A program made the translations under genes and the position numbers. This document shows positions 1 to 62,289 of a DNA stretch of 64,000 nucleotides, in pieces. The notes under the pieces are model-generated. The model was not told where the DNA came from, searched no databases, and was given only the letters and a program-made list of their open reading frames with translations. This DNA comes from a virus, in the IMG/VR virus record IMGVR_UViG_3300045988_124082. One strand, given 5' to 3'. How positions within the stretch are numbered: position 1 is the first letter of the stretch; each line of letters begins with the position of its first letter.

Positions 1-807
1 CTTGGCAATTGCATTTCCTTCAGCATCGTATCCTGAAATAAGAGAAGGAGTAGTATCTAAAATTTCCTTACGGATATTTAAGAATCTTTCATAAGAAGAA
101 GTATCTAAGCTGATGTTATTACCATATTCATCCACACCTTTAGATAAGGATTCAAACTCAGTTTTGTTTCCTTTAAGAGTAGAGATATTAGTTTTTGTAT
201 CAGATAATTTGTCCTGATAGTTTGTACGTGTTTTGTCAGCAGCTTCTATTTTATCTTTATCATAGGTAGCAGCTTTTTGAATCTTAGTACCAACCCAAGA
301 AAGTGCCATAGCACCTAATTGCATAAGAGCACTAGCAGCTAAACCAATACCAACATTAGCAGCAAAAGCACCGGCCTTAGCAGCAATACCTGAAGCTTTG
401 ATCTTTTCAAAAGCACCTGCAACTCCACCTGCAGCAGATTGAGCAATGCTACCAGATTTTTCTACAGCTTCATTAAACTTCTCAAGGCCTTTTCCATAAG
501 TATTTTTCTTATCGGTAAGATCATAGTTGTTTTGTTTGGCTTGACCGTAAAGAGTACTAGCTGTATCACGACCTTTTTCAGTCTTCATTTCATTCTGAAG
601 TCGCTTAAACATATCCTCTTTTTCTTTAGCAGACTTGCTACCAAAAATTTCAGGAACCATACTGTTACTAAAGAAGTCCTGCAATCTACTTTGATCGGAC
701 TTCATATTCTCATAATTAGCCTTACGTCTTGTAGGACTAAGTATGTTCAGAAGAGCACTACCAATTGGAAATTCATTTTTACCAGTTTCTTTATTGTACT
801 GTACAAG
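1..807 (-). CDS. tail tape measure protein, 3' exon (partial, runs past window start)
   Basis: Own minus-strand translation is open from ~807 to 1: ..LVQYNKETGKNEFPIGSALLNILSP..GAFAANVGIGLAASALMQLGAMALSW.. It is absent from the ORF track because it has no in-window start or stop. Gly/Ala-rich hydrophobic segment typical of tape measure proteins. Confidence 0.6.
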
Positions 808-1169
808 CAAACTGTTTACTCAAGGGCAGGAAAATACCCTATTTTCACACTGGTAAAATATATATTTGACAATCACTAATGCAATATTCTATACTAATTA
901 TGTAACAAGAAATATGTATTATATCTCAAAGTAATAATACACATGGGGCTCACAATTCAGTGAGCCTTTTGTGTATCTGGATTTAACAGGAGAAGAGAGG
1001 TTCATAAAGATACCTCTTTTTTACAATTAACCTTGCAATATTTGGAAACATAAGTTATAATTAGAAACATCATGGAATAATTGGTTGCCCAATTAATTAT
1101 TTTCATACAAAGGCATTCCTAGGAGGTAGGGATGCCTTTTCTCCATTTATGGAGTAACGATTCGTTACC

Positions 1170-1580
1170 TTATGCATTTTCGTTGCTTTGAGTAGCAATT
1201 TTATTCATTAGATTAGTAATCTGCCCAATTGCTTTAGAGTAGTCATCAACGTATTGGTATGTAAGACAAAGGGCAGACTTCCCTGTGAATTTACTCATCA
1301 AAAGAGTGAACCCTTTTTGATTCATTTTATACATTGGTCTATACTGTCCATTTTTATCTTGATACGAATCTAAGATATAATATGTCCCGCCCAATTGAGG
1401 CAAGTCTTTAATAAAATTGTGAATTTTCTTTAACACATTGCTATGTTTTTTTTCATAGAAGTGTGCAACGTCAATAGAAGTTATATATAAACTTTCTCTT
1501 TTTGAATTAACTCCACAATCTTTTGTAATATCATATCCACTAACAACTTTAGTATCTAATCTATAATTTTTTCTTCCCAT
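1170..1580 (-). CDS. Rha-family phage regulatory protein (inside the intervening sequence)
   Basis: ORF track 1170..1637, start moved to the ATG behind AAGGAG. DVAHFYEKKHSNVLKKIHNFI and YKMNQKGFTLLMSKFTGKSA resemble the Phage_pRha pattern. Confidence 0.55.
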   Translation of the reverse strand: MGRKNYRLDTKVVSGYDITKDCGVNSKRESLYITSIDVAHFYEKKHSNVLKKIHNFIKDLPQLGGTYYILDSYQDKNGQYRPMYKMNQKGFTLLMSKFTGKSALCLTYQYVDDYSKAIGQITNLMNKIATQSNENA

Positions 1581-1669
1581 ATCTCCATAAACTCCTTTTA
1601 ATATAAATTTAATTTTAAAAAGGAGGCGATATTTCACCGCCCCCTTATCAACAACAATCTCACCAAACT

Positions 1670-2428
1670 TTAATCTTCAAGATCCCCAACAACTCTGTAA
1701 ACAAGTTTCTGACCTTTACCAGTTACATAAGTCTGTGGAACAATCACATTGCAAATCACATGTTCGCCAACTTCAAAACATCCGTTCTCAACATATCTCT
1801 GATATGGCATGTTGTCCCGCATCAGGATTCCATTGCTTCTCAAAATTTCGAAAAGGCGATTCCTTCCAATGTCATATCCATCATTCTGCAACAATTTGGC
1901 CATTGTATTCATGTCGATCGTATCAGAAGAAGCAGTAACACATCTTGCAAAATCTATATCTTCTTTGGAAGCTTCAAGTTCCCCTCTAAGCTCTGCGATT
2001 GTAGCTTGCTGAATTTCCAGTGCCTTAAGTACAAACTCTGCTTCAGACAGATTTTTATATGGAATATATCCACCAGTGCGTCTAATCTGTGGAAGAACTT
2101 CAGATGTTACCCATCTACGGAATCTTTTAGCTGAATCTAATTTACTATTGAAAATTAGATCATAAACACCAGATTCATTGATGACAGTCACATTTCGCAT
2201 TTGACCTGCGTACTCGATTTGGGTACGCAGCTTATCCTCAACATCTACGTGCTTTGAGACAGCGTTTCGATAGTTAGAATATCCAAGTGCGATTGCAATA
2301 TCATTTCCAACGAAGTATGGTGTTCCTTCTATCTCAATACATCTGATTGATCCAAATTCATCGTTTACGAAGTTCATAATCTGATTGTTGTTTTCTACTC
2401 CATTTTCTGCTTTTGTTAAAATTGCCAT
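1670..2428 (-). CDS. Bro-N / KilAC (ANT) antirepressor-like protein (inside the intervening sequence)
   Basis: N-terminal FGSIRCIEIEGTPYFVGNDIAIALGYSNYRNAVSKHV is Bro-N-like. C-terminal TIDMNTMAKLLQNDGYDIGRNRLFEILRSNGIL is KilAC/ANT-like. Confidence 0.65.
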   Translation of the reverse strand: MAILTKAENGVENNNQIMNFVNDEFGSIRCIEIEGTPYFVGNDIAIALGYSNYRNAVSKHVDVEDKLRTQIEYAGQMRNVTVINESGVYDLIFNSKLDSAKRFRRWVTSEVLPQIRRTGGYIPYKNLSEAEFVLKALEIQQATIAELRGELEASKEDIDFARCVTASSDTIDMNTMAKLLQNDGYDIGRNRLFEILRSNGILMRDNMPYQRYVENGCFEVGEHVICNVIVPQTYVTGKGQKLVYRVVGDLED

Positions 2429-2496
2429 ATTAAATTCTCCTTTTCTTCAGGAAGGTGCACCAAATGGCATAGAACAGATGGTGCTGATGATTTGCT

Positions 2497-2588
2497 TATC
2501 CTTCTATGCATATATGGCTAATTTACTACCCCTTTAAAACACCAGATTCTACCTAGTGTTTTAAGACTCAATTAATGTGGTAAGTCTG
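2497..2588 (-). promoter_or_regulatory. conserved ~95-nt hairpin element, copy A
   Basis: Aligns with 29364-29466 and 29559-29655. Minus strand reads TTACCACATTAA, then a long hairpin, then GGGGT(A/G)GTAAA(T/A)TAG..TATATG..GAAGGAT. Lies about 70 nt upstream of the Bro-N ORF. Confidence 0.4.
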
Positions 2589-3061
2589 CTAGAGCAATAT
2601 AAAAAGAGTATTAAATTATGTTAATAAGTATTTATAATATATCGTATAAAATTCATTTCCCTATGTGCAAGCATGTTTCCATGCTGATAATTTTCTAGCG
2701 GCACATTCGCATACAGTTCTGATCATCCCTTTCTGATGTCACTCGTAAGGTGAGTTAACCAGATTCCCATTATGATCGATGGACGTTCCTCTAATATAGA
2801 GGCTTCGCTGCGGATTCTGTATAAATATTGATCTTATTACTATATCTTAGGAATTACCCCTTGCCCTTAATACATCACTGTACTAAGTTAGTAATCAATA
2901 TCGTTTAACAGTTCCCGTACATAAATTATCAAAAAGTATTTCAGTTTCGGTTGTTTTCTAAGCAATCTCTTATTCGTATCACCATTTCAATACAAATTCG
3001 TTCTGTGTTACCACTAGATTGCTCTGGGCATTGTACATGAGGACAACTGATAATTTGCCCT

Positions 3062-3685
3062 ACCCAGCTTTCCTTTTGCTCCTGCGACTCCTAAAGCACC
3101 TATAAAGGCTGTTCTAAGAAGTCCTGCTTTAGTTACTAAATTTGTTATTTGAGTTCCAGCATCTACAAGTCCTTTGATAAAATCAGAAGAAATAGAAGTG
3201 TTCCACATTTCTTGGAAACTTGCTGTCAGCTGATCAACTTTACCTTGGATGGAATCAAGTTGAGTTTCGTTTTCACGAAGTGCTGATCCTTCTGAGTTTT
3301 GTGTTTCGTTGTAGACTTTTTCTAACTGCTCAGGATGCATAAGAATTGAACTTACTATGTTAGATCTCTGCTTTCCTGCAATTTTTTCGAGAATAGAAGC
3401 TTGTTTTAAATCACCACCATCAGAACTACCAATCTCATTCCAAATCTTACCTAATCCCAACATAAGCTCATATGGATTCTTGTAAGAACCATCGTCCTTT
3501 AACATATCGAATCCCTTATAGTCATTAGATGCTACTTTTGTCTGGTTTTTAATAAGATCTCGTAACTGTGATTTATTTTGGATATAACCCGTAACGTCCT
3601 CACCAGCTTCTTGGAGGACATTCATGTCGGTACCCCTAATCCTCATTGATACTGTTTTTAGACCGGCCAAACGCTGTGTTACTTT
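3062..3685 (-). CDS. tail tape measure protein, middle exon
   Basis: ORF 3014..3691 trimmed. It begins KVTQRLAGLKTVSMRIRGT (TP901-type TMP core). The last 16 codons of the ORF (RANYQLSSCTMPRAI) look intronic. Confidence 0.6.
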
Positions 3686-4516
3686 CCCCAACAGTAAGAG
3701 GTACGTACCATGTAGAACATGGCGTCTAAGAATTTCTTCTTAGCTCTGCAATTTTATTTTTAGGCTATAGTTGCAGATCGGACTGGATCTTCACCCTCTT
3801 TCTACAAAGTAGAGTAGGGGAGGAGCTGAACCTCTTATGTCACCATAAGAGGTATTACAGTCTCTACGGCTCCCTTATATTTAAGTATTAAAAAAACAGA
3901 GTCTCCTCTGCTATATTATTAAATATTCGGTTGCCTCGGTCTTGTCACGCCTTTATGATTTTAACCGATACGGCTCCTTGCTAAACTGCATATTACTACG
4001 CAGCTTGGGCGCTTGGTCTATTTCCACCCACTGATTCTGGATTCTGAACTACAGAATTCAATTTATTAGTATAGTTCACTACACTATACAATATATAAAT
4101 AGATATAATTATACTAAATCATTTATACATTCTCCACATCTCTGTGAAGTTTAGATCATGTTTTAATCCCTCGACTATACGTTAGGGATCACACCTTTTC
4201 GTTTACTGGTATTTAACCGACACCAATCGTTTGTGTCCTACTCCTATTGACTCAGATATTCAGGATTTCCACCTTTATTCACTGGCCTGAGTCCCGACAT
4301 GGGGATGATCGTTGAAGGTTTACCCTCGACTAACACCATATGATCTATGGAATACGTTAGGGTACTTCCCTGCAAATTAGCCATTGTAACATCTCTAACT
4401 TGTTAATCCTTCATACAGTGATTTCTCCTGTATTGTGGCTTAGAGTTTTAGGCAACCAATGCAATTAAATGTGTTCTTTGGTTGTGCATTTCTGCACATC
4501 CTAGGCAACTGTATTT
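3686..4516 (-). mobile_element. ORF-less group I intron in tape measure gene
   Basis: Splicing GGT|..G|AAAGTA restores ..ALTTVG-KVTQRLAGLKTVSMRIRG. The upstream exon ends in U and the intron ends in G. R-like GTAGAGACTGTAA (rc 3855-3867) pairs with S-like AAGATCCAGTCC (rc 3780-3791). No ORF in the track. Confidence 0.6.
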
Positions 4517-7500
4517 ACCTACCGTAGTAAGAGCGACTGACTGTTCATAATTAGCACCTGCCGCTTTTAAAGCACTAGCAGATCTTTGTAATGAACTAGC
4601 AATTTCATCTGATGAAATAGGTTCCAAGTTACCAATGTTATTCAAAACATCAACAACATTCTCTACATCATCAGCACCCTTATCGAATCCCTGCATGATA
4701 GAAATCAATGCATTAGTAGCATCATCTACCTGCTCAAATTCTGATACATTCATGAGAATACCTGTCCACTTAGACATCTTCTCAGAATCTTGTGTGTTAT
4801 AGCCTAATCTAGCCCAGTCAGCAGTAGATTTGGTTAATTCCACAGCATCTCTACCGATATCTTTACCAGTAGCATACATATCTTTTTCGACAGTAGCATA
4901 AACATCACTCGTATCACTTGTGACTTTCTTTAACTCTGTCATTGCAGCATCCATTTCTTTGATGCTTTCAATTCCTTGTTGGAATCCTTGCCATACGACA
5001 TCAATTCCACCCATTGAGATCAAGTACTTACTTAACTTAGTAACTTCTTGACCCATATCTCCAACGATTTGTCCAAACAAACTCTTATATTCAGAACGAC
5101 TCTTAAGCTGTGATCTAGCAATACCAGTATCCTGATTAAAATTAATAGCATACTTTTCAAGCTTTCCATCATCTCTTGATCTCGCCTTGATATAAGCAGC
5201 CATTCCATTTCTACCCATACTGGTTTCAAGAATATTACTATTCACACCAGAAGCTCTGAACAATTCTTCAGCTTTAGCTTCATTGAAATCATTTAAGGAT
5301 AATCCTTCTCCGATAACAGTTCCCTGATTGTTCTGGAGCTTAAATTGGTTTCTAAGTCTACCATGTTCAGTAAGCTCAGCGTTCAGTCTATTAAGCTCTC
5401 TAATATCTTCCTCAATTTCTTTATTATCAAAGAAAACATCTCCACTATGTTTTTCTTTTAAATCTCTAATTCGGTTAACTGTAGCTTCAACCTTAGTCGC
5501 AAATTCTGTTGTATATTGTTCAAGATCTTGACTAACAATGGTCTTTGATAAAGCTCTGTCAGCAGCATTTTTAACACGATCAGATTTAGGATTAGTATTC
5601 CCTAATGCTGTACCATCGTTTGCTCCACCAACATTTCCACCGGCTAAAACCTTGTTCATGTTCTTCAAGCCAGTAGCAATCTCACCAGTAAGATTAAATT
5701 TCTTATTTAAATTATCAACCAGTCTTGTAACTTCACGAATTGAACTACCAATACCAGCAAAAGCACCTGCGATCTTAGCAGAATAAGCAGTAGACTTGTC
5801 AGCCAGATTAGCAATCTTATTTGTCATGGTCTCAATATCAGAAGCTTTCTTGTCTGTAAAAGACTGTCCTGTATTGAACTTAACTTTTAAATCAAGATTC
5901 TTTTTTAGGTCATTGATAATCTTCTCAACAGTAACCAAATCATCTAATACAGCATCAGTATTAATACCAACTTTAATGGGTTCAGAAGCTTTCTCTCTTA
6001 AAGAAGTAAGCTTGCTTTCGGCTTGTGTTAACTCTTCATCATTAACATTGATGTCAATTTTTGTGTCTCCGCTGTTAGAATCCTCTTTAAATTTTTGAGT
6101 TGAAGTAATAGCTTTCTCGAGATCTTCAACATTGCCTTTAAAATTAACCGCAACGTCAATAGCATCCTTAGAGCGAAGTTCATTTACTTGTTGAAGAATG
6201 TTATCAATATTCTCTGTATTAGCTTTAAAATTAATAGTAATATCTATATTTTCTTTTGATCTTAGTTCATTAATTTCTTGTAAAATTGTATTGAACTCGG
6301 AATCGTTTGCTTTAAGATTAACAATGATATCTTTGCCTTCGTAAGAAGCAATCTTTTCATCAACCTTAGCTAACGCAGATTCTAACTGAGAAGTGTCAGC
6401 AGTAACTTTTACAGAAGATTCTTTGAGATGTTCACCTTCTGTAACACTGTTTGTCTTAGTTTCAGTAACATTTCTGCTTGGAAGTTCACGAATTGCATCT
6501 TTGTTTTTGCTTAACCATTCACGGCTTTCTTGAGACCAAGGAGTTTCAATAGTAGCTCCTTTTTCAGCTTTAATAGATGTGTATGTATCAACAGTTTTAA
6601 CAGCTTCTTGAAGACCTTTAGCTTCCTCGGCATAGATATTTTCTTCATTCTTAATCTTTTCATTGAATTTCTGGATATATTCTCTAGCGCTTTGGAAAGT
6701 ACTGATCAGGTCTTTGTTACTCATGTCTTTCATGTCAGCAGGCATTTCAAAATCTTTATCAACTTCCCTTTGACGGAGTTCTAATTTTTTAACTGCTTCA
6801 GATAAGAATTGTGTAATATTTTTATCAACAGCATGAGTAGTAGAACCTTCTTCTGGCTGATAATTGCTTAGTATTTTACTGTAATACTCGGCTTTTTGTA
6901 GTTCCTCATCGGTAAGAGTTTCACCTTTGGATTGTTTTTCCATCAGGTTCTTACTACCGGCTTTTGCACCGTTGTATTGTTGAGGACTAATTGCTTGTCC
7001 TTCTTGAAATTTATATGGTTTACTAGAGTCGAACCCAGAAATCAAAATACCTTCTTGGGCTAAAATATCACTCCATTGTTTATTGAATTGGTTTTTAAGT
7101 TTATTAGTTACTCCTGTAGTCTTTTTGATATTTCTATCAGTGCTAGTCATAGCCTGAGTAAGAGCCTTATTAACCTGTTTAACAACATCCTCTTCGATCG
7201 GAGATAAAATATTTTTTAAGTCGATTCCCTGGGCTTGGAACAGGCTTTTATAACCTTCTGTACCTGCAAAATCAGTTTGTCCTGTTAGCAATTCTTTTAT
7301 AAACTTTTGTCTAGAAGTAATAGTATTTCTTAACTCACCAGCTCGTTTGAGCATTTCATCGTTCTTACTCCAATCAGAATTTGACATTAAACCATGCAGT
7401 TCTTCAAAAGCTTTTCCAATGTCTTCTTGAGCTAGCATTCCGGCCATTGCATATTCTTTAAAATCATTTAAAGAGATACCATTTTTAGAATTACCATGTA

Positions 7501-7954: not shown

Positions 7955-8452
7955 TTATTTCACCCCCTGTGATTTAAAGTCAGCTATCATTGCAGCTTTT
8001 AATTCGTTCATATATTGCCCTTGTACGATCGCCATAGCTTCTTGGGCACAACTAGCTTCCAACTCAGCTCTTCGGCTGTTAACATCGTTCTCTATAGTTT
8101 GCATAGGACTAGGAGAAGAAGTAGGAGTTCCAACATTGTATCCACCATGTTCTCCACCAATAAAGTCCCATTCAAATACTGTTTCAGGACTCTGATTATA
8201 GTGCCCACCTATAGAAGCAGAAGAGATAGTAATTCCACCTTTCGCTGTTCCAGGCCCACTGATAGTTTTAACCAGAGGTTGACTAGCTTCATATAGTCCA
8301 TAGCTTCGTCCATATTGTTTAGGGTCGTAATCACCATAAAAGCTGGCTGCAGCTAATTCACCAATTTCTTTCAATTTTTCTGATGCCAATTGAGCAGCCA
8401 AATTAGCTGCAGCAACATTCATTTTCGTCAACACTTCCTGTGCTTTGCTCAT
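7955..8452 (-). CDS. hypothetical tail-module protein directly upstream of tape measure gene
   Basis: 165-aa ORF ending 3 nt before the TMP start. Function is suggested by position only. Confidence 0.5.
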   Translation of the reverse strand: MSKAQEVLTKMNVAAANLAAQLASEKLKEIGELAAASFYGDYDPKQYGRSYGLYEASQPLVKTISGPGTAKGGITISSASIGGHYNQSPETVFEWDFIGGEHGGYNVGTPTSSPSPMQTIENDVNSRRAELEASCAQEAMAIVQGQYMNELKAAMIADFKSQGVK

Positions 8453-8469
8453 GTAATTCTCCTTCCATT

Positions 8470-8497
8470 AAAAAGAGCCTCACATGAGACTCTTTTT
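8470..8497 (-). terminator. hairpin flanked by A and T runs (bidirectional-type)
   Basis: aaaAGAGCCTCAcaTGAGACTCTtttt between two tail-module ORFs. Confidence 0.45.
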
Positions 8498-8500
8498 AAA

Positions 8501-9037
8501 TTATTCTACTTTTAATTTTTCAATCATTGTTTTCATAACTTCAGTACTATCAATTCCTTTGGCACCTTCTACAATAGCTTCCTGAACGCTTAGATTAATA
8601 AATCTTAATTCCCTTGAAACAATGGCTTCTAAAGAATTATGATTCCTCATATGGTCTTCCCAAGCTAATTTATATAGCTTTTTAAATTCTTCAAAATCCT
8701 TTCCAATTTCCTCTAAGATTCTGTCAATCAATCCAGCTTCAGCAAGAGAATCTAATACCTCGTAAGTACTTTCTCCTTCAAACTCAATATTTGTATAAAG
8801 CTGTAGAGCAGTAGTGATCAATACATGATAAGCACTGATTGAATTTACAGTAACAGTATAGCTTTCGCTTTCTTTTCCTAATGCCTTAATGATTTCTTCA
8901 ATTGCAGTAATTTTTATTGCAATTGGAACATAATGACCAATTTTTAAGCTTGGGATAGCATGTTCTAATGTAGCTCCCTCTACAGAGCTATTGAATTCCT
9001 CAATAATAGTGTCTAAATTTACTGTATTTTCTCCCAT
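8501..9037 (-). CDS. acidic protein, tail assembly chaperone candidate
   Basis: 178-aa, strongly acidic, located shortly upstream of the TMP gene. Positional inference only. Confidence 0.4.
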   Translation of the reverse strand: MGENTVNLDTIIEEFNSSVEGATLEHAIPSLKIGHYVPIAIKITAIEEIIKALGKESESYTVTVNSISAYHVLITTALQLYTNIEFEGESTYEVLDSLAEAGLIDRILEEIGKDFEEFKKLYKLAWEDHMRNHNSLEAIVSRELRFINLSVQEAIVEGAKGIDSTEVMKTMIEKLKVE

Positions 9038-9039
9038 AG

Positions 9040-9504
9040 TTATTTCTCCTTTTCTTTTTTCTGTTTCTCTTTGCGTCTCTTTCTTCTTTGAGACTGAATA
9101 TATTCATAAGTTTTCCATCCACCATCAATCTTTGAGTATGCTACCCAATAAAAGTTGATATGAGGATATTTATATAGAAGTAATTTTCTTTTCATAGGTG
9201 CCACATGATCTGGCATACCTTTTACATCAATGACATCTTCATGTCCGTCTTTATATGTAAGTACAAAATCTGCCACATATTTAATAGGAAGATATTTTTT
9301 ATCTTGATGTTCAAATCCTTCCTGTAATAAATATTCTTTCTGTCGTTCACAATAGGTGATTTCCCCTGAAAGGATGCCCGGAAGAACAGCATCTCTGTAA
9401 AATCTCATCTCAAGAGCAGAGTCGAATACGATCCCATCACACATACGATTATCAGTTCGCTTACTAACATTGTACTTACTGTCTCTTTGTTTCTTTTCGC
9501 TCAT
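9040..9504 (-). CDS. DUF1064-like PD-(D/E)xK nuclease-fold protein
   Basis: ..LPIKYVADFVLTYKDGHEDVIDVKG.. carries a D..(D/E)xK-type motif, followed by a basic KRRKEKQKKEKEK tail. Confidence 0.5.
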   Translation of the reverse strand: MSEKKQRDSKYNVSKRTDNRMCDGIVFDSALEMRFYRDAVLPGILSGEITYCERQKEYLLQEGFEHQDKKYLPIKYVADFVLTYKDGHEDVIDVKGMPDHVAPMKRKLLLYKYPHINFYWVAYSKIDGGWKTYEYIQSQRRKRRKEKQKKEKEK

Positions 9505-9564
9505 AGTCCTCCTTATAAAATCCGTATACTAAAAAACAGCAGAAGTACCTGCTGCTATAATGTT

Positions 9565-9783
9565 CTAAATTAATTCATGCTTACACCAAGCATCATACAG
9601 GTGCTTAGTGTCTTCTCTGTTCCAAACAAATAAAATTTTGTTCTGATCGAATCTATTGTCTGGAATGATATCCAAAAGTTCAGCTCCATAGCTTAAGTAT
9701 TTAAAATTCTGAAGCATATTTGGAATAAATACACATTCATCCGGTTCATAAGTCTTCCCGGTAATTCCACTTGTAGTTTTCAT
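9565..9783 (-). CDS. hypothetical protein
   Basis: 72-aa ORF with an upstream AGGAGG and a downstream terminator hairpin CAGCAGgtacttCTGCTGtttttt. Confidence 0.5.
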   Translation of the reverse strand: MKTTSGITGKTYEPDECVFIPNMLQNFKYLSYGAELLDIIPDNRFDQNKILFVWNREDTKHLYDAWCKHELI

Positions 9784-9803
9784 AGTTCCTCCTGCTTATA
9801 ATT

Positions 9804-9846
9804 AAAAAAAGAGAGACACATAAAACCTAATGGCTATGTGTCTCTC
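9804..9846 (-). terminator. rho-independent terminator
   Basis: Minus strand: GAGAGACACATAgccattaggttTTATGTGTCTCTC followed by TTTTTTT. Confidence 0.6.
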
Positions 9847-9881
9847 AGTGATCATTTCTTTTCACTAAGAGATCCGCAAAC

Positions 9882-10220
9882 CTATCTCCATTTCTTCTTA
9901 CCACGAGAGTAAGAAGAAGGAGAAGAGGAAGGGGATTGAGCCGTTTTGTTGGTCTCAGCGAAAACTTTCTCAATAACGCCTAAAACGTCAGGGAGAAAGT
10001 CAGATTTGTTAGTTAAATCACACTTGTCCAGTTTTTGTCTTGTTTGTTCAGCATTGCATTCGCCTGTAGAATATCTCTGACAAGCATCAAATACTTTTCT
10101 ACAATTGTCTGAATCAAAGATAAAATACCAAGATGGTTTATCTCTATCGACATCACAATGAGGACAGTAGTGATATGCCTTCCCACAACAAAAACAGGTT
10201 CTCTGTTTCGTTTCTCCCAT
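9882..10220 (-). CDS. Cys-rich (zinc-ribbon-like) hypothetical protein
   Basis: CFCCGKAYHYCPHCD motif and a Ser/Pro-rich C-terminus. Confidence 0.5.
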   Translation of the reverse strand: MGETKQRTCFCCGKAYHYCPHCDVDRDKPSWYFIFDSDNCRKVFDACQRYSTGECNAEQTRQKLDKCDLTNKSDFLPDVLGVIEKVFAETNKTAQSPSSSPSSYSRGKKKWR

Positions 10221-10295
10221 GATATTCCTCCATTTCTAAATCGTTTCCAATCAAATAGCTGCCTTATCATCTGACAAGACAGCTTTTAAATTTGA

Positions 10296-11099
10296 TTATT
10301 CTGTAGGCATTTTTGGTACGATGATATCGAAAAGTTTCTTTTCTTTATCACAGTACTGTTGCATACACTGGATTTCAAATGGATGTTTACCATCAGTAGA
10401 GAATGTTAAGTCTACATTAGAGCTTAACTTAGCCTGTGGGAATACAAGATAAGCATTGTACAGTGTACTTACGTTACATACGTCAGCACCTAAAATCTGT
10501 ACAATCAGTTTTCCAGCTTTAGGGAATTTTGTAGCACTGTTAGTTACTTTAACAGCTTCAGCTGTCTCATATTCGTATTCAACGAATAACTGAGAACCTT
10601 TAGATAAGCCAGTTGGTAATGTTACACTATCTGTTCCTTTAGCATGAACAAATTTATCATCACTTGCAGCTGCACCATTAGTATATTTCTTCCCTAATGT
10701 GCTATCACCTTTTAATTCATAGATGTATTTAATCTGCTCTGTAGGTGTGTGTTTTAATGTAACAGCAGTACCAGCTGCAATATCAATTGTTTCGAAAGCT
10801 GTAGCAATTACTTTAGACTCAGCATCAGCAACCTGTTTCTTTGTACCAAACTGAGCAGCAGCTAATCCTAAATCGAATAAAGAGTTAGTTGCAGAGAAAG
10901 TAGCTTTCTTAGCTCTATCGAATTCCATAATAGGAACTTCAAGAGCATCAGTAGCCTGAGTTGTGTCAGACTCGCATTTAATAGATGGCTCTGTAATCTG
11001 ATTAATAGACCATAAGATTTCTCCTGTGTCTGTATCTACCATGATTGCACGTAAGCATCTATCGATGACAAAGTTATTAATGTCGAATGTACTTGCCAT
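10296..11099 (-). CDS. major tail protein candidate
   Basis: 267-aa Thr/Ser/Ala-rich ORF with a strong RBS AAGGAGG, followed by a hairpin. Position lies between the connector genes and the TMP gene. Confidence 0.4.
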   Translation of the reverse strand: MASTFDINNFVIDRCLRAIMVDTDTGEILWSINQITEPSIKCESDTTQATDALEVPIMEFDRAKKATFSATNSLFDLGLAAAQFGTKKQVADAESKVIATAFETIDIAAGTAVTLKHTPTEQIKYIYELKGDSTLGKKYTNGAAASDDKFVHAKGTDSVTLPTGLSKGSQLFVEYEYETAEAVKVTNSATKFPKAGKLIVQILGADVCNVSTLYNAYLVFPQAKLSSNVDLTFSTDGKHPFEIQCMQQYCDKEKKLFDIIVPKMPTE

Positions 11100-11156
11100 G
11101 TTTAATCCTCCTTGAAATATTTAAAAATTTGTATAAAAAAAGCAGCTCCATAAGAG

Positions 11157-11873
11157 CTACTTAATCCAATTAAGGTCTTCGGTTTTAATTTTTGAGGTAT
11201 CTATCATACCTGAATAGCATCCTTGTAAAAGTGCAACAGCTTGTTTCTTTTTCTGAATCTGTTCAACGCTAGACATAAAAGCTGAGATATTTAAATCTTG
11301 AACAGATTGATAATCATACTTGAACTCTTCAGTATTTACCATTGAGATAACAAGAGGAAGAAGTATTGGTTCAAACTCTTTGTTTTGATTCATTTCATAT
11401 TTCATCTTGTCTTCTTCAATAAGGATTTTTTTAGTTTCTTCATTACCAGCGATTTCTACTTTAGGTTTGAGGCCGTGCAAAGATCTAAAATAATCACATA
11501 TTTTGATATAGGCTAGCTTGTCAATCATGATGTCGTCTTCCATATCAACAAGAACAAGGTCTCCATTTACTTGATTTTGAGCCATCTCAAATTTACTGAG
11601 ATCAACTCCCATGAACAATCGTTGAGATATGTCAGTTTCAAGAGTTGGAGCCATAAGCATAAATAAATCAAAGTCTTCAACTTCTTCATAGTCTAATCCC
11701 AATTTAAAAAGCCTGTATTTCATATCACTAGGAATACAGGTTAATGTAAATACAGCTTGAAAGTATTTGTCTTCACCCATCTCTTTTATGTCTCTAAGAG
11801 TAGGCTGATGAATACTTATTGCATCATTGATATAATAATCATCTCCGAAAATGATAGACAGGTCTTTATCCAT
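11157..11873 (-). CDS. hypothetical structural-module protein
   Basis: 238-aa ORF overlapping the upstream gene by 8 nt. Terminator AGCTCttatgGAGCTgcttttttt follows. Confidence 0.5.
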   Translation of the reverse strand: MDKDLSIIFGDDYYINDAISIHQPTLRDIKEMGEDKYFQAVFTLTCIPSDMKYRLFKLGLDYEEVEDFDLFMLMAPTLETDISQRLFMGVDLSKFEMAQNQVNGDLVLVDMEDDIMIDKLAYIKICDYFRSLHGLKPKVEIAGNEETKKILIEEDKMKYEMNQNKEFEPILLPLVISMVNTEEFKYDYQSVQDLNISAFMSSVEQIQKKKQAVALLQGCYSGMIDTSKIKTEDLNWIK

Positions 11874-12429
11874 GATCTACCGTATTGTCAGGAATTTCCT
11901 CATGTGAGACATTGTTATGGGCATTATTTCTGTTGTCCATTCGTCCCTGATAAGGATTACTTGGAGTGATCACTCGGAATTTCAATGTCCTGCAAACATA
12001 TCTGGTATCAGTAGTTCCTGACACATCGTATGTAAGTTTCATTTGAAATCCTAAATTGTTACTCCACTGAAAATTATCTCTGATGCAATATCCTAAAAGA
12101 TCATGTCTTTCAGCCCCATAAGGAGTAGCGAGATTATCTTCGTGGCAAAATACTCTAAAAGTACATACCTGTTCTTTCATCATCCCATTCCGATCATTGA
12201 TATCTACATCATCAATGTCGAAACAAATGAAATTCTGAACTTCAGATTGTACTGGTTCAATATGAATTGCAGGAAAAATATTTATTCCCAGATATTCATC
12301 TGGAGAGTTTGGATCAAGTTTTGGGTTATCCAAAAGTTCGATAATATCAGAATCATTGTAAAGAATTTCTTTAATAATCCTTTTCTTGTAGATAATATCA
12401 TCATCTATGTTCTGAAAATCTCTTATCAT
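11866..12429 (-). CDS. hypothetical structural-module protein
   Basis: 187-aa ORF, translationally coupled on both sides. Confidence 0.5.
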   Translation of the reverse strand: MIRDFQNIDDDIIYKKRIIKEILYNDSDIIELLDNPKLDPNSPDEYLGINIFPAIHIEPVQSEVQNFICFDIDDVDINDRNGMMKEQVCTFRVFCHEDNLATPYGAERHDLLGYCIRDNFQWSNNLGFQMKLTYDVSGTTDTRYVCRTLKFRVITPSNPYQGRMDNRNNAHNNVSHEEIPDNTVDHG

Positions 12430-13049: not shown

Positions 13050-14425
13050 CTTAGTTTTATATTTAAGTCGTTAGCTTAAATAGTTTTAATTTACATATAA
13101 AGAAAGATATTTATCATATTTTCGTTGTAGATATATATTAGCGTCTTTATACATCCAATCAGCGACTATTTTTCCGTTTTCACCATAAAAATCAATTACT
13201 CCAGTAAAGTCGTTTCCCTTTTTTGCTGGTCTTAAATTAGCTTTTATGTCTGGAAAAAATTTAGATATCACTTCATAAAATTTAGAGCAAAACTTTTTAG
13301 TAGATGTGATAGAAATAATGTTTTTTCTTACACAGCCATTTCCATCAAAATATCCCCTAATAAAATGAGAATGTAAATCTTCTCTAAGCCATGTTGGGTA
13401 TTCTAAACAATAGCTTTTTCTTGGAACCATTCCAAGTGACTGTAATTGACGACACATATATGCACTAAAGATTAATAAAGTATATTGATCTTGATATGTA
13501 TATCCAAAATCATGCTTATTAGAATTATCTACAAATCTTAAAGGATGTTCATTGCCAATTTCCTTATTAATTCTTTCAAGGATAGGACGATCACCTTTCT
13601 GTAAAGACATAGATATAGTCTGTTTAGGCATATAATTAGAACCATCTGCATCTAAAAATCCTAAAATATAAGCTTTTTCTGGAGTATCTATTTCATCAAA
13701 ATAATGTTCATTTACTTTATAAGTTCTTTGGCCATTACCAATTCTTTTGATTCCATAAGTGTCCAGAATCCTTCCAACAAATTTATGATTGACACCATAT
13801 TTTTTACCAATTGCTACAGAAGAGACTCCATCTCTATACATTTGAGCCATATCGTCTTTATGCTTTTGTGAAACGTCATTATGAGTAAAACGTCCACCCT
13901 TTAAATCTTTTATAATTTTATGAATTTCAGGATATCCATCTCCTGTAATGTCTACAATTTCTGATAAAGTTTTTCCTTTTTTAAATAAATTTCTATAATA
14001 ATCTGTTTCGTATTTCATTGAATTTCCTCCTAAAAATTTCAATATAAAAAAGACAGTAATTGTTGTGTTAGGAGCACAACAAAAGAGGAGCTACCTCCTG
14101 TCCTGTCTTAATTAACTATTTATGTAAACTAAAATCCTTATGCTTTCACACAAGAGAAGAGCACATCAACACCATATTGTAAGTACAACTTAGGTGGCTC
14201 CCATTTTCAGGCACTTGCCCTACTTTGCTCGTTGAAGGTTTCTCTGTTCGAGACTTCCCGGCTGATTGTCCAATTTATTTTTTTTCAAACATTCACGCTC
14301 GCCCATATTTCATGACCACGTTGTAGTAAAATAACTTTAAGGAGTTTCCAGCAAAAAGAGAGCTTTTTCACTAACAAGTTTCCCTGATAGTGCGCACGAA
14401 TTTACGAATTTCGGCTGCGGATCGC
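13050..14425 (-). mobile_element. group I intron with LAGLIDADG homing endonuclease ORF
   Basis: A 359-nt ORF-free structured 5' part carries P-like GCCGGGAAGTC (rc 14252-14262) and TTCAACGAG (rc 14228-14236). The endonuclease ORF fills the 3' part. Proposed splice is ..YSCLG|..G|NNSGVW.. Boundaries approximate. Confidence 0.6.
13086..14042 (-). CDS. LAGLIDADG homing endonuclease (double-motif) with N-terminal helix-turn-helix-like repeats
   Basis: Two LAGLIDADG motifs: YILGFLDADGS and FIRGYFDGNGC. Confidence 0.8.
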   Translation of the reverse strand: MKFLGGNSMKYETDYYRNLFKKGKTLSEIVDITGDGYPEIHKIIKDLKGGRFTHNDVSQKHKDDMAQMYRDGVSSVAIGKKYGVNHKFVGRILDTYGIKRIGNGQRTYKVNEHYFDEIDTPEKAYILGFLDADGSNYMPKQTISMSLQKGDRPILERINKEIGNEHPLRFVDNSNKHDFGYTYQDQYTLLIFSAYMCRQLQSLGMVPRKSYCLEYPTWLREDLHSHFIRGYFDGNGCVRKNIISITSTKKFCSKFYEVISKFFPDIKANLRPAKKGNDFTGVIDFYGENGKIVADWMYKDANIYLQRKYDKYLSLYVN

Positions 14426-24053: not shown

Positions 24054-24384
24054 CCTAACTGAGTTCGACTCCTCAAGGTTTCCCTATGAGTGCAGACTAT
24101 ATCTTCACCCTTAATAAAAGGGGCTTATTTTTTGGAACCACCAATCGCTTGTGGCCTACTTCCTTACGGAATAGTCGTTGGACTCCATCTTTCGATAAAA
24201 GCTGCTGATTATCCATTAAAAAAGAGCAGGGGATTTAACCTCGCTCTTATACAACCAATTTTTTCAGTTTTCACAACATTCACGCCTATACCATTGCAGG
24301 TATTACGTTGTAGTTTGGTAGTCTTTAGGACTTCCCAGCAATTAAATAAGTATTTTTTCATACAGCTTACACTATACGCAGACT
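24054..24384 (-). mobile_element. ORF-less group I intron in small-terminase-like gene
   Basis: P TTGCTGGGAAGTCC (rc 24328-24341), R TCCAACGACTAT (rc 24171-24182), S GAAGATATAGTCTGC (rc 24092-24106). These closely match the classical R (GUUCAACGACUAGA) and S (AAGAUAUAGUCC) boxes. The 5' boundary is good to about 20 nt. Confidence 0.65.
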
Positions 24385-25386
24385 AATAAGGTTAATCTGT
24401 TTATGACGAGCTTCTTCTGAAATCTCTGCAACCTGGCGCATTCCTTCACAAGTACCAATATCAAAGGTGTTAATTTCTGCCTCTCGGAACCCAATATCTC
24501 GTAAATGCTTTTCTTTCCCGGACAGAGTGAATGCACCTTTGGATTTATTATTGTTATTTGTGATAGAAATACCATTTTCTTTAGCTAATGAGTTAATATT
24601 ATTGACCAGTTTTGAAACTGTTTCAGATAAGTTTTTGACAACAGCATTGTTCTGTACAGCAGTTGTAACATCAATCGTGTACGCATCAATAGCTGCGTTA
24701 AGATTTGTGATCTGAGCTTGTGACTTAACAATTTGGATTGCAGCAATCATCTTCATTGCATCATTCTTAGTTTCTTCATCCAAAAAGTTAACAAGCTGAG
24801 AGTAGAGTAGAGGCATGTCTTTTTCACTTGGGTATTCATCAAATGGATCATACCCAATGATTTTAATGACATCCTTCCTATTTTGTTCATATGCTTCTTT
24901 AAGAGCTTCAGCATCGGTATAAATGGATTCTGTTTTCACCTTCGATACATGAGTCATATCTTTAAAAATATCACTATCACGCCAACGCTTACCATGATAC
25001 TGATTCAAACCAAGACTTGTTAGATAAACACCCCATATAGTTTTATTTTCTTTCTTTTTACCTCTTTCTGGAGGCTTGTTTGCACTGAATACAGCAGTTT
25101 CCCATAAATCTTCATAGAATGGCTTATCTAAATACTCTAAAGCATCTTGAACGCTTTCTCTTGTCTCTCCAAGAAATTCTCCAGCATCAGTTTTTCTACG
25201 AGCAACAGCAGTAGAACAATCTTTACAGATTCTTGTAATACCTGTTAAAACTCTAGGATCTGAACTACTATAGAATTTTGTCTTTGGAAGATCTTTGTTG
25301 CAAAAAGGACAGCGAAATGTTTCTTCTTTTTGCGCTTGTACCTTTTTAGCAGAGGATTGTGTACGGCGCATTGCAGTTTTCGCCAT
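24385..25386 (-). CDS. small-terminase-like packaging protein, 5' exon (zinc-ribbon N-terminus)
   Basis: ORF 24367..25386. CPFCNK..CKDC zinc ribbon. Located directly upstream of terL. Function is positional. Confidence 0.45.
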
Positions 25387-27025: not shown

Positions 27026-27098
<73 letters not shown>

Positions 27099-27282
27099 AC
27101 AAAAAGAGTACATTGTAACTACCAACAATGTACTCAAATTTAGAAAAGAGGTATAAATTATGATTCCTACAAGAAATCTTAATAGCTTTGTAAATCTTTC
27201 TGAGGTATGAAACAACAATAGAAAAGCGCAATAATCAAAACTTCACAAGAAAGGAGATAATATGATTCCTCAGAAAGATTAA

Positions 27283-27354
27283 CAGGGATAACTGGATTTG
27301 AACCAGTGAATACAGCAGTCAAAGTGCTGTGCCTTACCGCTTGGCGATATCCCT
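27283..27354 (-). tRNA. tRNA-Gln (anticodon TTG)
   Basis: AGGGATA acceptor, CAGCA-CTTTGAC-TGCTG anticodon arm, ACTGG-TTCAAAT-CCAGT T arm. Confidence 0.8.
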
Positions 27355-27967
27355 ATATGTATTTTAATTTTAAAGCAGGTCTTCACCTTACAGTCATTTG
27401 TGGAATAGTTTGTTCTGCAACATAGTAGATAAGTCTGAGCTTTGAGGAGCGACCTCTAACTTCTTACCTAAGTCTAAAAGACCAGTTCTATGACATGATC
27501 AATACATGCAATGTCAACCCGCCATTCAGAATTAAGTTTTATTGTTATATACTCTATTAGCATATATATTCATTTTGAATTTGAACTTACCCTTAACTGA
27601 CTTGAGCGACATACCAGCGACTTTTCTTATACACTGTCTTTTGAACAGCTTCACATCAAACTACATTATTTGGCTTTTCCACCTTTTACGTACCTGCCAG
27701 AGTACGCATTGAAGTGGATTATTCTCCACAGGAGCGTCTATTGTTGTAGCGAAAAGTTCTGTGCGTTAACCAGACCAAAATGCTGCACAATATCCATTTG
27801 CTTGAGAGTTTCTCTCTTGTCCATATCAGATCACTCCGACATAAAAAGAGACACAAAGAACGTATCCGTACAATGTATCTCTCCAATTCGACATATGTGC
27901 CTAGAATATTTCTCGGACTCATGGCATTGAGTTTTATAACCGAGTTGCTTATGTTTTAAAATACAAA

Positions 27968-28039
27968 CACCCTAAGCTGGATTTGAACCAGCACGAACGG
28001 TTTTGGAGACCGTCATTCTACCAACTAAATTATTAGGGC
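27968..28039 (-). tRNA. tRNA-Trp (anticodon CCA)
   Basis: GCCCTAA acceptor (G1-U72 wobble), ACGGT-CTCCAAA-ACCGT anticodon arm, GCTGG-TTCAAAT-CCAGC T arm. Confidence 0.75.
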
Positions 28040-28046
28040 GATATTA

Positions 28047-28120
28047 CTGACATGACAGGACTCGAACCTGCAACACCAACGTCCGTAGCGTTGTGCTCTG
28101 TCCAGTTGAGCTACATGTCA
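28047..28120 (-). tRNA. tRNA-Arg (anticodon ACG)
   Basis: TGACATG acceptor, GCTC/GAGC D stem, CAACG-CTACGGA-CGTTG anticodon arm, TTCGAGT T loop. Confidence 0.75.
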
Positions 28121-28163
28121 TTAAAATTCGACCTCAATCCACATAGGATTTTGAGGTACTTTC

Positions 28164-28249
28164 GTCCCTGTTGAGGGTATCGAACCCACTCGTGACCGAA
28201 GCCATCTGATTTACAGTCAGATCCGCCTCCTTAGCGGGATAAACAGGGA
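28164..28249 (-). tRNA. tRNA-Tyr (anticodon GTA), long variable arm
   Basis: TCTGA-CTGTAAA-TCAGA anticodon arm, GGCTTCGGTC variable arm, TTCGATA T loop. The D arm and T stem are slightly irregular. Confidence 0.6.
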
Positions 28250-28291
28250 TATAAGCCCGTGAGCTCGAAAGACATCACAGGACAACCTAAA

Positions 28292-28377
28292 CGCTGCGAC
28301 AAGGATTCGAACCTTGAGGTCACTAGGACACAATAGTTTTCAAGACTACGCCGTTATAACCATTTCGGTACCGCAGC
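28292..28377 (-). tRNA. tRNA-Ser (anticodon TGA), long variable arm
   Basis: GCTGCGG acceptor, GTAGT-CTTGAAA-ACTAT anticodon arm, CAAGG-TTCGAAT-CCTTG T arm. Confidence 0.75.
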
Positions 28378-28382
28378 AAAAG

Positions 28383-28474
28383 CGTACAGAGTGGGCTACG
28401 ACCCCACGTTACATGTATTCGCATGTAAACCCAATTAGCAGTCGGGCGCCTTAAACCAACTCAGCCATCTGTAC
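28383..28474 (-). tRNA. tRNA-Ser (anticodon GCT), long variable arm
   Basis: GTACAGA/TCTGTAC acceptor, CCCGA-CTGCTAA-TTGGG anticodon arm, 7-bp variable arm TTACATG..CATGTAA. The T loop GTCGTAG is atypical. Confidence 0.65.
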
Positions 28475-29246: not shown

Positions 29247-29369
29247 TTATTTATTCTTGGAATCTTTTTTGATCTGCTGGCGTTTCTTGAATGGAACTGG
29301 TTTCAATCCCCATGCAGTTCTTAAATCTTCCAGTGAGTTGTAATGTTCAGTTACTGTATTCCTTTTCAT
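29247..29369 (-). CDS. small basic ORF (40 aa) behind hairpin element copy B
   Basis: Own translation MKRNTVTEHYNSLEDLRTAWGLKPVPFKKRQQIKKDSKNK* with RBS AAAGGAAGGA. Below the ORF-track length cutoff. Confidence 0.35.
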   Translation of the reverse strand: MKRNTVTEHYNSLEDLRTAWGLKPVPFKKRQQIKKDSKNK

Positions 29370-29466
29370 TGCTTATATCCTTCCTTTCATATATCACTAT
29401 TTTACCACCCCTTCAAAACACTAGGTTTTACCTGGGTTTCTGAGGGGTATTTAATGTGGTAATTCT
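29364..29466 (-). promoter_or_regulatory. conserved ~95-nt hairpin element, copy B
   Basis: Minus strand: TTACCACATTAAATA-CCCCTCAGAAACCCAGGTaaaACCTAGTGTTTTGAAGGGG-TGGTAAAATAGTGATATATGAAAGGAAGG. TGGTAAAAT resembles an extended -10. Confidence 0.4.
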
Positions 29467-29558
29467 GCTCACCACTCAAAAATTTGCCTTAAAATACACT
29501 TTTTAGTATATATAATTAACTTTTATTTTCTTTTCGAAAATCTGATCTTTTTAGCATT

Positions 29559-29655
29559 TCCTTATCCTTCCTTCCATATATCACTATTTTACCACCCCCT
29601 GAAGAACGTAGGCAGAACCTAGCGTTTTCAGGGTCAATTAATGTGGTAATTCTTT
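29559..29655 (-). promoter_or_regulatory. conserved ~95-nt hairpin element, copy C
   Basis: Same architecture as copies A and B. It is followed by a 13-codon mini-ORF (MLKRSDFRKENKS). Confidence 0.4.
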
Positions 29656-62139: not shown

Positions 62140-62289
62140 GGGGACATAGCTTAATAGGTAAAGCAAAACTACATTCTTCCATAAAGAACTTAAAACTAAA
62201 ATTTTCATATTAAATATAAACATTTTGTACCTCCCTATTGTAATAAAATAACACTTATATTTATGTGGGTTCGAATCCCACTGTCCCCA
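62140..62289 (+). ncRNA. interrupted tRNA-like gene (canonical acceptor, D and T arms; about 75-nt AT-rich insert in place of the anticodon region)
   Basis: GGGGACA..TGTCCCC-A acceptor, GCTT-AATAGGTA-AAGC D arm, GTGGG-TTCGAAT-CCCAC T arm. The only anticodon-like hairpin is TTCT-TCCATAA-AGAA (CAT, with C33) at 62174-62188. Confidence 0.4.

Follow-up and report, generated by a model that had tools for sequence, protein, structure and literature searches.

A putative group I-type intron with exchangeable regulator genes in the tape measure gene of a gut phage

Group I introns of phages are usually regarded either as vehicles for homing endonucleases or as bare ribozymes. In the T4 nrdD (sunY) intron, which encodes I-TevII, the open reading frame (ORF) lies 3′ of the catalytic core and the distant 3′ splice site is recognised with the help of P9.0, P10 and the terminal G; I-TevII, like I-TevI of the td intron, is a GIY-YIG homing endonuclease expressed from an intron-internal promoter, and these introns are optional among relatives. 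Phage morons are promoter-gene-terminator units inserted in late operons. To our knowledge, the only group I introns with other cargo are the IStrons, which carry a transposon. Here we describe a 2,254-nt insert in the tape measure protein (TMP) gene of the virus record IMGVR_UViG_3300045988_124082, analysed over a stretch of 64,000 nt (the window), which is likely to be a group I-type intron with two regulator-type genes as its cargo.

In the IStrons CdISt1 of Clostridioides difficile and BcISt1, a 5′ group I ribozyme of subgroup IA2 is followed by cargo lying ahead of a distant 3′ splice site (PMC4227781). The tape measure insert resembles these elements in lacking a homing endonuclease, in holding kilobase-sized protein-coding cargo, in occurring as copies with differing ORFs and in a total length of ~1.8–2.4 kb (PMC4227781). 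It differs in that IStrons carry an IS200/IS605 or IS607 transposase and occur as many transposed copies, whereas anti-repressor and Rha regulator cassettes at a single fixed site of a phage structural gene are found here, and in that its ribozyme is not scored by the Rfam model. Compared to the T4 nrdD and td introns, it has no recognisable endonuclease and occupies the site in all relatives. Group I introns also split the TMP gene of Vibrio phage PS17B-2 (L031) and the tail hydrolase gene of Staphylococcus phage DW2 (L032; PMC4124061), and their P4–P6 regions are homologous to that of the window insert; these introns, however, span 300–400 nt, show a canonical P3 and canonical R and S boxes, match the Rfam model RF00028 and carry no regulator genes. 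A report on cluster J mycobacteriophages includes a description of group I introns in tail or tape measure genes (PMC3706429). The cassettes of the insert share with morons a promoter-like start, terminator-like ends, variable presence and accessory regulators as products, but they lie inside an intron of an essential gene and not between genes, where splicing presumably makes the insertion harmless. As judged from its sequence, what is new in this locus is a group I-type intron with IStron-like architecture, exchangeable regulator cargo and a core that escapes Rfam. The intron appears to have become fixed in a human-gut clade of ~130-kb phages, and its cargo lies where IStrons carry insertion sequences (IS).

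The second interruption of the tape measure gene

All genes of the region lie on the minus strand. The TMP gene starts with the ORF 7951–4448 (PhageMin_Tail match), is interrupted a first time 0.6 kb upstream of the insert studied here, and then continues as ..KVTQRLAGLKTVSMRIRG...GVAGAKGKLG to the end of the frame at T3062. Past this position the frame reads 16 more codons, GRANYQLSSCTMPRAI, and then a stop; it resumes at C807 as an open frame, ..LVQYNKETGKNEF.., that runs beyond the window edge. The frame break noted in the first-pass annotation at 3062 and about 807 is thus real, and C807 is its exact downstream border.
3062–3691, minus strand: TMP exon 2, from ORF and frame; aligns with the TMP core region of the relatives P0003, P0005 and P0008
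1–807, minus strand, leaving the window: TMP exon 3; homologues P0001 and P0002 with 88–93% identity
808–3061, minus strand: whole intervening sequence, group I-type intron, 2,254 nt; 1811–3169 nt long in the 23 related contigs that have it
The 3′ end of exon 2 at T3062 is firm, while its 5′ end is approximate because it abuts the first interruption. Two distant TMPs read across the break: P0004 is a single polypeptide colinear with the end of exon 2 plus exon 3, and L047 is uninterrupted across the homologous position.

Relatives were collected by a P/Q-box pattern search together with a protein look-up. The pattern matched 11 contigs of IMG/VR (44–134 kb) and 12 from metagenomes, of which at least one is labelled as human gut; two further short contigs and a prophage remnant in decay (L003) came from the look-up. 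The insert was present in all 23 close relatives, invariably at this position of the TMP gene; each copy follows ..AAGCTGGG(T) and is followed by CTTG.., and the window holds a single copy. No close relative was found by megablast or tblastn among 50,697 phage records, which yielded only distant TMPs and, for Bro-N, a match of 126 nt to Lactobacillus phage Ldl1, and the pattern scan of genome contigs gave no match, hence no host. Since no endonuclease and no empty site were found, the intron looks fixed in the clade and not actively homing. We refer below to relatives of the window's own lineage and to a second lineage formed by L018 and L003.

The L003 remnant (9130–12100) lies in a bacterial contig beside an integrase fragment and a tRNA-like gene recognised by eye. 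Its TMP fragment has an in-frame TGA, and in its intron the U of the 5′ splice site is replaced by C, the R box is lost with a deletion of 55 nt, and the 3′ end is truncated.

The intron boundaries, 3061 and 808, were set by the reading frame, the U·G pair of P1, the terminal G and P10. They agree with the 2.25-kb group I-like element proposed in the first-pass annotation, for which the RNA parts below, all on the minus strand, provide support.
3024–3067, minus strand: P1, formed by 5′ exon CUGGGU (3067–3062) and guide GCCCAG (3029–3024), with the U3062·G3029 wobble at the splice site
3037–3031, minus strand: P10 guide UGUACAA, 1 nt 5′ of the P1 guide; pairs with exon 3 UUGUACA at 806–800 (exon bases 2–8)
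2961–3023, minus strand: P2 AGCAAUCU/AGAUUGCU around the P2.1 hairpin; compensatory changes, C-G to U-A in P2 and two pairs in P2.1
2807–2936, minus strand: P3 5′-strand candidates (2936–2923), P box/P4 (2919–2911), long P5 extension, Q box (2816–2807)
2721–2808, minus strand: P6 hairpin (2808–2783), R-like box GUCCAUCGAUCAU, P7, P8 and J8/7; P6 to R box colinear with canonical introns
2719–2714, minus strand: candidate 5′ strand of P9.0, GAACUG, 1 nt after P7′; complement of CAGUUU at 814–809, directly before the terminal G
2659–2706, minus strand: P9 hairpin AUGUGC/GCACAU enclosing GCAUG-GAAA-CAUGC; paired, with compensatory changes
808–975, minus strand: conserved 3′ tail with hairpin GGCUCAC..GUGAGCC (966–947), small hairpin (840–828), 3′ strand of P9.0 (814–809) and G808

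The U·G wobble of P1 coincides with the exact end of the TMP frame, and the P1 pairing is kept in 13 of 13 distinct sequences; in the decayed copy L003, a C-G pair stands in place of the U·G wobble. The inner stem of P1 is AGGGCAA/UUGUCCU (3061–3055 and 3046–3040). Both strands of P10 are altered together in L018, with UGCAA as the guide and C-UUGCA as the start of exon 3. The P-like, Q and R-like boxes of the first-pass annotation are where it had put them: the P box TACGGGAAC at 2919–2911 is one base off the consensus, the Q box AATCCGCAGC at 2816–2807 is exact, and the R-like box GTCCATCGATCAT lies at 2784–2772. The helix assigned as P7 pairs GAUCAU with AUGAUC (2777–2772 and 2726–2721), G-C being its first pair, and shows two compensatory pairs in L018 (GAAUAU/AUAUUC); P8 is UCUGGU/AUCAGA with an inner hairpin, and J8/7 is AAGGG. 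At the 3′ end, the tail 975–808 is homologous in L018 and L003, and the terminal G808 is conserved as the end of the intron in both lineages. The 3′ strand of P9.0 reads CAGUUC in L018, which turns G·U into G-C. When core and tail were folded without the cargo, the minimum free energy structure lacked P9.0 and the 3′ end paired with AAACUG upstream of P3, and because of this competing partner P9.0 remains a candidate. The order of parts is core (3061–2663), cargo (2654–976) and tail (975–808). P1–P9 are contiguous in the first ~400 nt, and the claim that ORFs interrupt the intron core was wrong: the cargo follows the core and precedes the tail, and is not placed in P6 or P8.

Group I ancestry was indicated by homology. 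The region 2899–2773, which covers the P5 extension, Q box, P6 and R box, resembles introns in gyrB of Bacillus phage Internexus, in the PS17B-2 TMP gene and in the DW2 tail hydrolase gene (blastn E-values of 1e-7 and 7e-5; nhmmer E-values of 2e-8, 3e-7 and 3e-3), all three of which pass RF00028 with 64.7–98.5 bits. The multiple alignment was colinear from J3/4 to the R box, where the window has GUCCAUCGAUCAU against the canonical GUUCAGAGACUAU. Covariation was assessed on 13 distinct sequences with a 110-pair structure, in which 98.7% of the cells were paired. Compensatory double changes occurred at 13 pairs, located in P2, P2.1, P5, P5b, P6, P7, P9 and P9a, compared to 3.6 ± 1.5 in column shuffles and 0–2 with slid partners; they represent few independent events, since the changes stem from essentially two lineages. 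Among relatives of the window's lineage, identity reached 97.5–100% in the core, 97–99.6% in the leader element ahead of the cargo and 95–99% in the tail, versus 91–95% in the flanking exons; between the lineages it was 84% for the core and 65–67% for the exons. That the non-coding intron RNA is more conserved than its host gene indicates function, recent horizontal spread, or both. Taken together, we consider it likely that the insert represents a group I intron in the TMP gene, descended from subgroup IA2 and located between the codons ..KLG and LVQ...

In the proposed working of this intron, the late TMP transcript would run through the insert, the core would fold, and exogenous guanosine would attack after U3062. 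P9.0 and P10 would then bring G808 into the G-site and the exons would be ligated to ..GKLG-LVQYNK... Since the 5′ exon (P1) and the start of exon 3 (P10) are both held by the guide, T3062 would be joined to C807 in two transesterifications, which would restore one TMP frame. The spliced junction would read ..AAGCTGGGT + CTTGTACAG.., with the 30-mer AAAGGAAAGCTGGGT|CTTGTACAGTACAAT and the peptide GKLGLVQYNK, and without splicing the read-through peptide would be GRANYQLSSCTMPR. We infer that the intron RNA splices in vivo, which would render the insertion harmless to the TMP and would make the intron a safe landing place for accessory regulator genes. If true, self-splicing introns can be safe insertion sites for accessory genes in essential structural genes. 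Such introns are probably under-annotated in metagenomic phage genomes because gene callers split the TMP and the Rfam model misses the core.

Regulator genes and expression signals between core and tail

The cargo consists of two ORFs, whose families, as named in the first-pass annotation, were borne out by Pfam, together with candidate expression signals.
2596–2624, minus strand: promoter-like site TTAACA-17-TATATT upstream of the cargo, 10/12 matches; a consensus match only, its count not above shuffles
2490–2590, minus strand: leader hairpin element, third copy in the window, 97–99.6% conserved in relatives; precedes whichever ORF is first
1670–2428, minus strand: cargo ORF 1, Bro-N + KilAC (ANT) anti-repressor-type protein of 252 aa (Pfam Bro-N 3.5e-25, KilAC/ANT 5.9e-21; phrog_130 6.7e-72)
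1617–1644, minus strand: terminator-like hairpin GGGGGCGGUGAAAUAUCGCCUCC followed by UUUUU, after ORF 1
1170–1583, minus strand: cargo ORF 2, Rha-family regulator of 137 aa from ATG (Pfam Phage_pRha 1.4e-20; PHROG Rha-like regulators)
1108–1140, minus strand: terminator-like hairpin after ORF 2, read from the sequence; this hairpin accounts for a weak Rfam RefA9 match

Comparison of the relatives delimited a variable bay between a constant 5′ block (3061–2430), which comprises the core, an AT-rich stretch with the promoter-like site, the leader hairpin and a ribosome-binding site, and a constant 3′ block (1172–808). Five layouts were distinguished.
Intron of 2254–2256 nt: Bro-N/KilAC + short Rha (this window, L015, L029)
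Intron of 2662–2711 nt: Bro-N/KilAC + 268–270-aa Rha (L005, L007, L010, L016)
Intron of 1811–1861 nt: long Rha only (L014, L027)
Intron of 3169 nt: long Rha form + additional 500-nt insert (L009)
Intron of 2181 nt: two unrelated ORFs of 294 and 202 aa (L018)
At the position of ORF 2, most relatives encode a 268–270-aa Rha protein, and a Rha-family ORF is the sole constant cargo, present in 19 of 19 complete or near-complete copies of the window's lineage. L014 and L027 lack ORF 1, and in L005 and L016 its Bro-N part is a mosaic. L003 contains a shortened version of the L018-type cargo; one of the cargo ORFs of these two is a predicted membrane protein by eye, and neither L018 ORF had a match in Pfam or PHROG. 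The cargo breakpoints among relatives fall at ORF starts and ends. Judging from these alignments, recombination at ORF boundaries swaps the cassettes between related phages, whereas core, leader and tail stay constant. The cassette comparison proposed in the first-pass annotation thus revealed exchangeable units, and its phrase "a moron within an intron" is a fair description of cassettes that end in terminator-like hairpins and vary among relatives. No nuclease domain (LAGLIDADG, GIY-YIG, HNH, His-Cys box, PD-(D/E)xK and EDxHD homing endonucleases included) and no transposase domain was recognisable in any cargo protein with Pfam and PHROG, where the one transposase hit, DDE_Tnp_IS1595 at E = 0.024, lay under the cut-off.

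The first-pass annotation had also reported that the hairpin ahead of the Bro-N ORF recurs twice at 29.4–29.7 kb. Indeed, 2490–2590 matches 29369–29469 with 76% identity (E = 4e-14) and 29556–29653 with 75% identity (E = 2e-12), both in the same orientation. Each of the three folds into a common consensus hairpin of 22 pairs, with an AAGGA-type ribosome-binding site after it. In the copies at 29.4 and 29.6 kb, this site precedes the AUG of short ORFs (40 and 13 codons), whereas the intron copy has AUC in place of this AUG, with the start of the Bro-N ORF ~60 nt beyond it; the Rha ORF directly follows the leader in L014 and L027. No Rfam family was found for this ~100-nt hairpin. By its sequence context, the element behaves as a portable 5′ leader of the phage, and it is possibly a promoter as well. 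As for the proposed expression signal of the cassettes' own, a promoter-like site precedes the first cassette and each cassette ends in a terminator-like hairpin, all of them consensus matches only. The cargo is probably transcribed alone from such an internal signal, earlier than the late TMP message, and ended by its own terminators, in the way of the T4 intron ORFs and of morons.

A gene downstream of the tandem hairpin copies at 29369–29469 and 29556–29653 (minus strand) encodes a secreted protein of 127 aa, which appeared 3D-domain-like by eye.

On the opposite strand of the intron tail (866–978, plus strand, antisense to TMP) lies a strong promoter-like site, TTGACA-18-TATACT, with 11/12 consensus matches, and ~50 nt after it a terminator-like hairpin with a T-run (945–968). 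These signals could specify a ~70-nt antisense RNA within the conserved tail. The loop of the 945–968 hairpin is inverted in L009, beside its 500-nt extra insert.

Alternative readings of the locus

A number of observations weigh against an active intron at this site, beginning with its core. A search with the Rfam group I model was negative: RF00028 left the insert unmatched in the whole window, in 1–4700 and 2600–3100 (501 nt) even at E ≤ 10, and in L018. This silence is weak evidence, because another intron of the same phage (14137–14413) scores only 31.3 bits. The expected P3′ slot, AAUGGGAA (2771–2764), has no complement upstream of P4. The P3 5′ strand at the canonical position, UGAUAAUUU (2931–2923), has a perfect 9-bp partner, AAAUUAUCA, at 2693–2685, which sits 3′ of P7′ in the internal loop of the P9 hairpin and so gives a non-canonical topology. 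The stretch 2702–2659 can also be read as a second P7-J7/3-P3′-P8-J8/7-P7′ module with canonical spacing (CC[G]CUA, GAA, AAAUUAUCA, GCAUG-GAAA-CAUGC, UUGCACA and UAGGG), and the P9-hairpin and second-module readings have equal support, both being 100% paired with compensatory changes. RNAalifold, which cannot place P3, chose an alternative nested pairing, CUUUUUGAU/AUCAGAAAG; the P3 alternatives are not separable by covariation because all strands are invariant. Finally, the S box AAGGGAUGAUC deviates from the consensus AAGAUAUAGUC.

Our first manual fold had taken 2702–2659 as the P7-P3′-P8 core; it was replaced when alignment with canonical introns put the R box at 2784–2772, and is kept as an alternative. 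The core is best described as group I-derived with a non-canonical P3/P7 region. With its P3 partner beyond P7′ and two competing P7/P8 modules, this odd core offers RNA structural biologists a natural variant.

Further points against splicing concern the surroundings of the core. Two terminator-like hairpins and 1.9 kb separate it from the 3′ splice site, and late transcription past these hairpins is the main mechanistic weakness of the proposed intron. With regard to the boundaries, neither an intron-less allele nor a fused-exon protein was found among 5.8 billion proteins and in IMG/VR. In addition, an in-frame TTG at 810–808 is where gene callers begin a separate ORF (MLVQYNK..) in the relatives P0001 and P0002.

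An alternative explanation is a dead intron in a split gene, in which no splicing occurs, the TMP is made as two polypeptides and the cassettes are ordinary morons between two genes. The N-terminal part would then end with GRANYQLSSCTMPRAI, and the C-terminal part would start from TTG 810 or later. The silent RF00028, the non-canonical P3 and S box, the terminator-like hairpins within the insert and the TTG used in two relatives are all consistent with this explanation, and the decayed L003 copy demonstrates that the element can degenerate. However, no Shine-Dalgarno sequence precedes TTG 810, and a sense-strand promoter-like site that could serve exon 3 alone was sought in 808–975 and not found. 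In L018 the junction reads TAA-CAC-AGT-TCG|CTT without a start codon, and exon 3 is therefore not translatable alone in that lineage. The co-variation of the P10 guide with exon 3 and the 13 compensatory pairs also speak against it, the higher conservation of core and tail compared to the exons is unexpected for a dead RNA, and TMP homologues are single polypeptides across the position. We therefore regard a dead intron as unlikely, and a group I-type intron that splices as the better explanation of the locus.

Of similarly low probability is an extension of the intron model, according to which the intron is a dedicated exchange platform: core, promoter/leader hairpin and tail would bracket a bay for swapped regulator or exclusion genes, the Rha cargo may be a new intron-encoded maintenance or mobility factor, and late TMP expression may be coupled, via splicing across the terminators, to the activity of the cargo, with the two alternative P7/P3′/P8 modules as a possible conformational switch.

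Slightly less probable still is that the cargo proteins are not passengers and serve as the intron's own factors for site-specific DNA-binding mobility, maintenance or splicing. They could be related to homing endonucleases with Bro-N/KilA-N and GIY-YIG/T5orf172 domains, lack the nuclease part and recruit a separate enzyme instead; Bro-N and KilA-N frequently occur in fusion with GIY-YIG/T5orf172 endonuclease domains from homing-endonuclease lineages (PMC8096241), a link that speaks for this possibility. The constant Rha-family ORF of the window's lineage and the Bro-N/KilAC protein in most variants would be expected for such factors, and intron parts more conserved than exons fit a recent horizontal spread. 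On the other hand, none of the cargo proteins has a nuclease domain, L018 and L003 hold two unrelated ORFs at the same place, the lack of empty sites gives no sign of ongoing homing, and each cassette has its own terminator-like hairpin in the manner of a moron. An assembly chimera of unrelated DNA, a possibility named in the first-pass annotation, is refuted, since the order exon-core-cargo-tail-exon recurs in 23 contigs (11 from IMG/VR and 12 from metagenomes) of different samples and assemblers.

Other interruptions, introns and RNAs

The first interruption of the TMP gene (3676–4514, minus strand) is optional and absent in 11 related contigs. In the window it is ~0.8 kb long and ORF-less, whereas in L007 and L027 it measures ~1.5 kb and encodes a 382-aa multi-zinc-finger protein in which a CapR-homology domain was found (3e-11) and whose C terminus contains a motif resembling a nuclease by eye. 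It was unscored by RF00028 and contains a duplicated CCCUAACGUAU..AGUCGAGGG motif; its in-frame junction is seemingly without U at −1 or without the terminal G. Unlike the second interruption, it shows the classical intron cycle.

Additional breaks occur 3′ of exon 3 in relatives. In L001 (1480–1676), a stop in the TMP frame is followed by a new ORF ~200 nt on, and L002 (1108–1115) has overlapping ORFs downstream of exon 3; a third TMP interruption or a frameshift may thus lie beyond the window edge. A distant TMP gene (L033, 31% identity) contains a different group I-like insert of ~0.8 kb (8198–9034) at the same protein position (..LKNVG|). This RF00028-negative insert has a P1 of UGUCGGU/GCCGACA with a U·G pair, P- and Q-like boxes and a 97-aa zinc-ribbon ORF on the reverse strand, and the TMP site may be a recurrent intron target.

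Elsewhere in the window, 14137–14413 (minus strand) is a sub-threshold group I intron (RF00028 31.3 bits, E = 7e-6; nhmmer E = 5.5e-12 with the DW2 intron), and it probably splits one gene into the flanking ORFs 14830–14402 and 14042–13086. At 24072–24404 (minus strand; RF00028 62.5 bits) lies a canonical group I intron with consensus P, Q, R and S boxes; together with the other introns, the 64 kb contain at least four of group I type. The window also contains a ROOL RNA (27357–27968, minus strand, 305 bits) within a cluster of six tRNA genes (27026–28474). At 62140–62289 (plus strand), an Rfam tRNA match spans 150 nt, about twice the normal length, where ARAGORN finds no tRNA; this could be an interrupted or aberrant tRNA gene.

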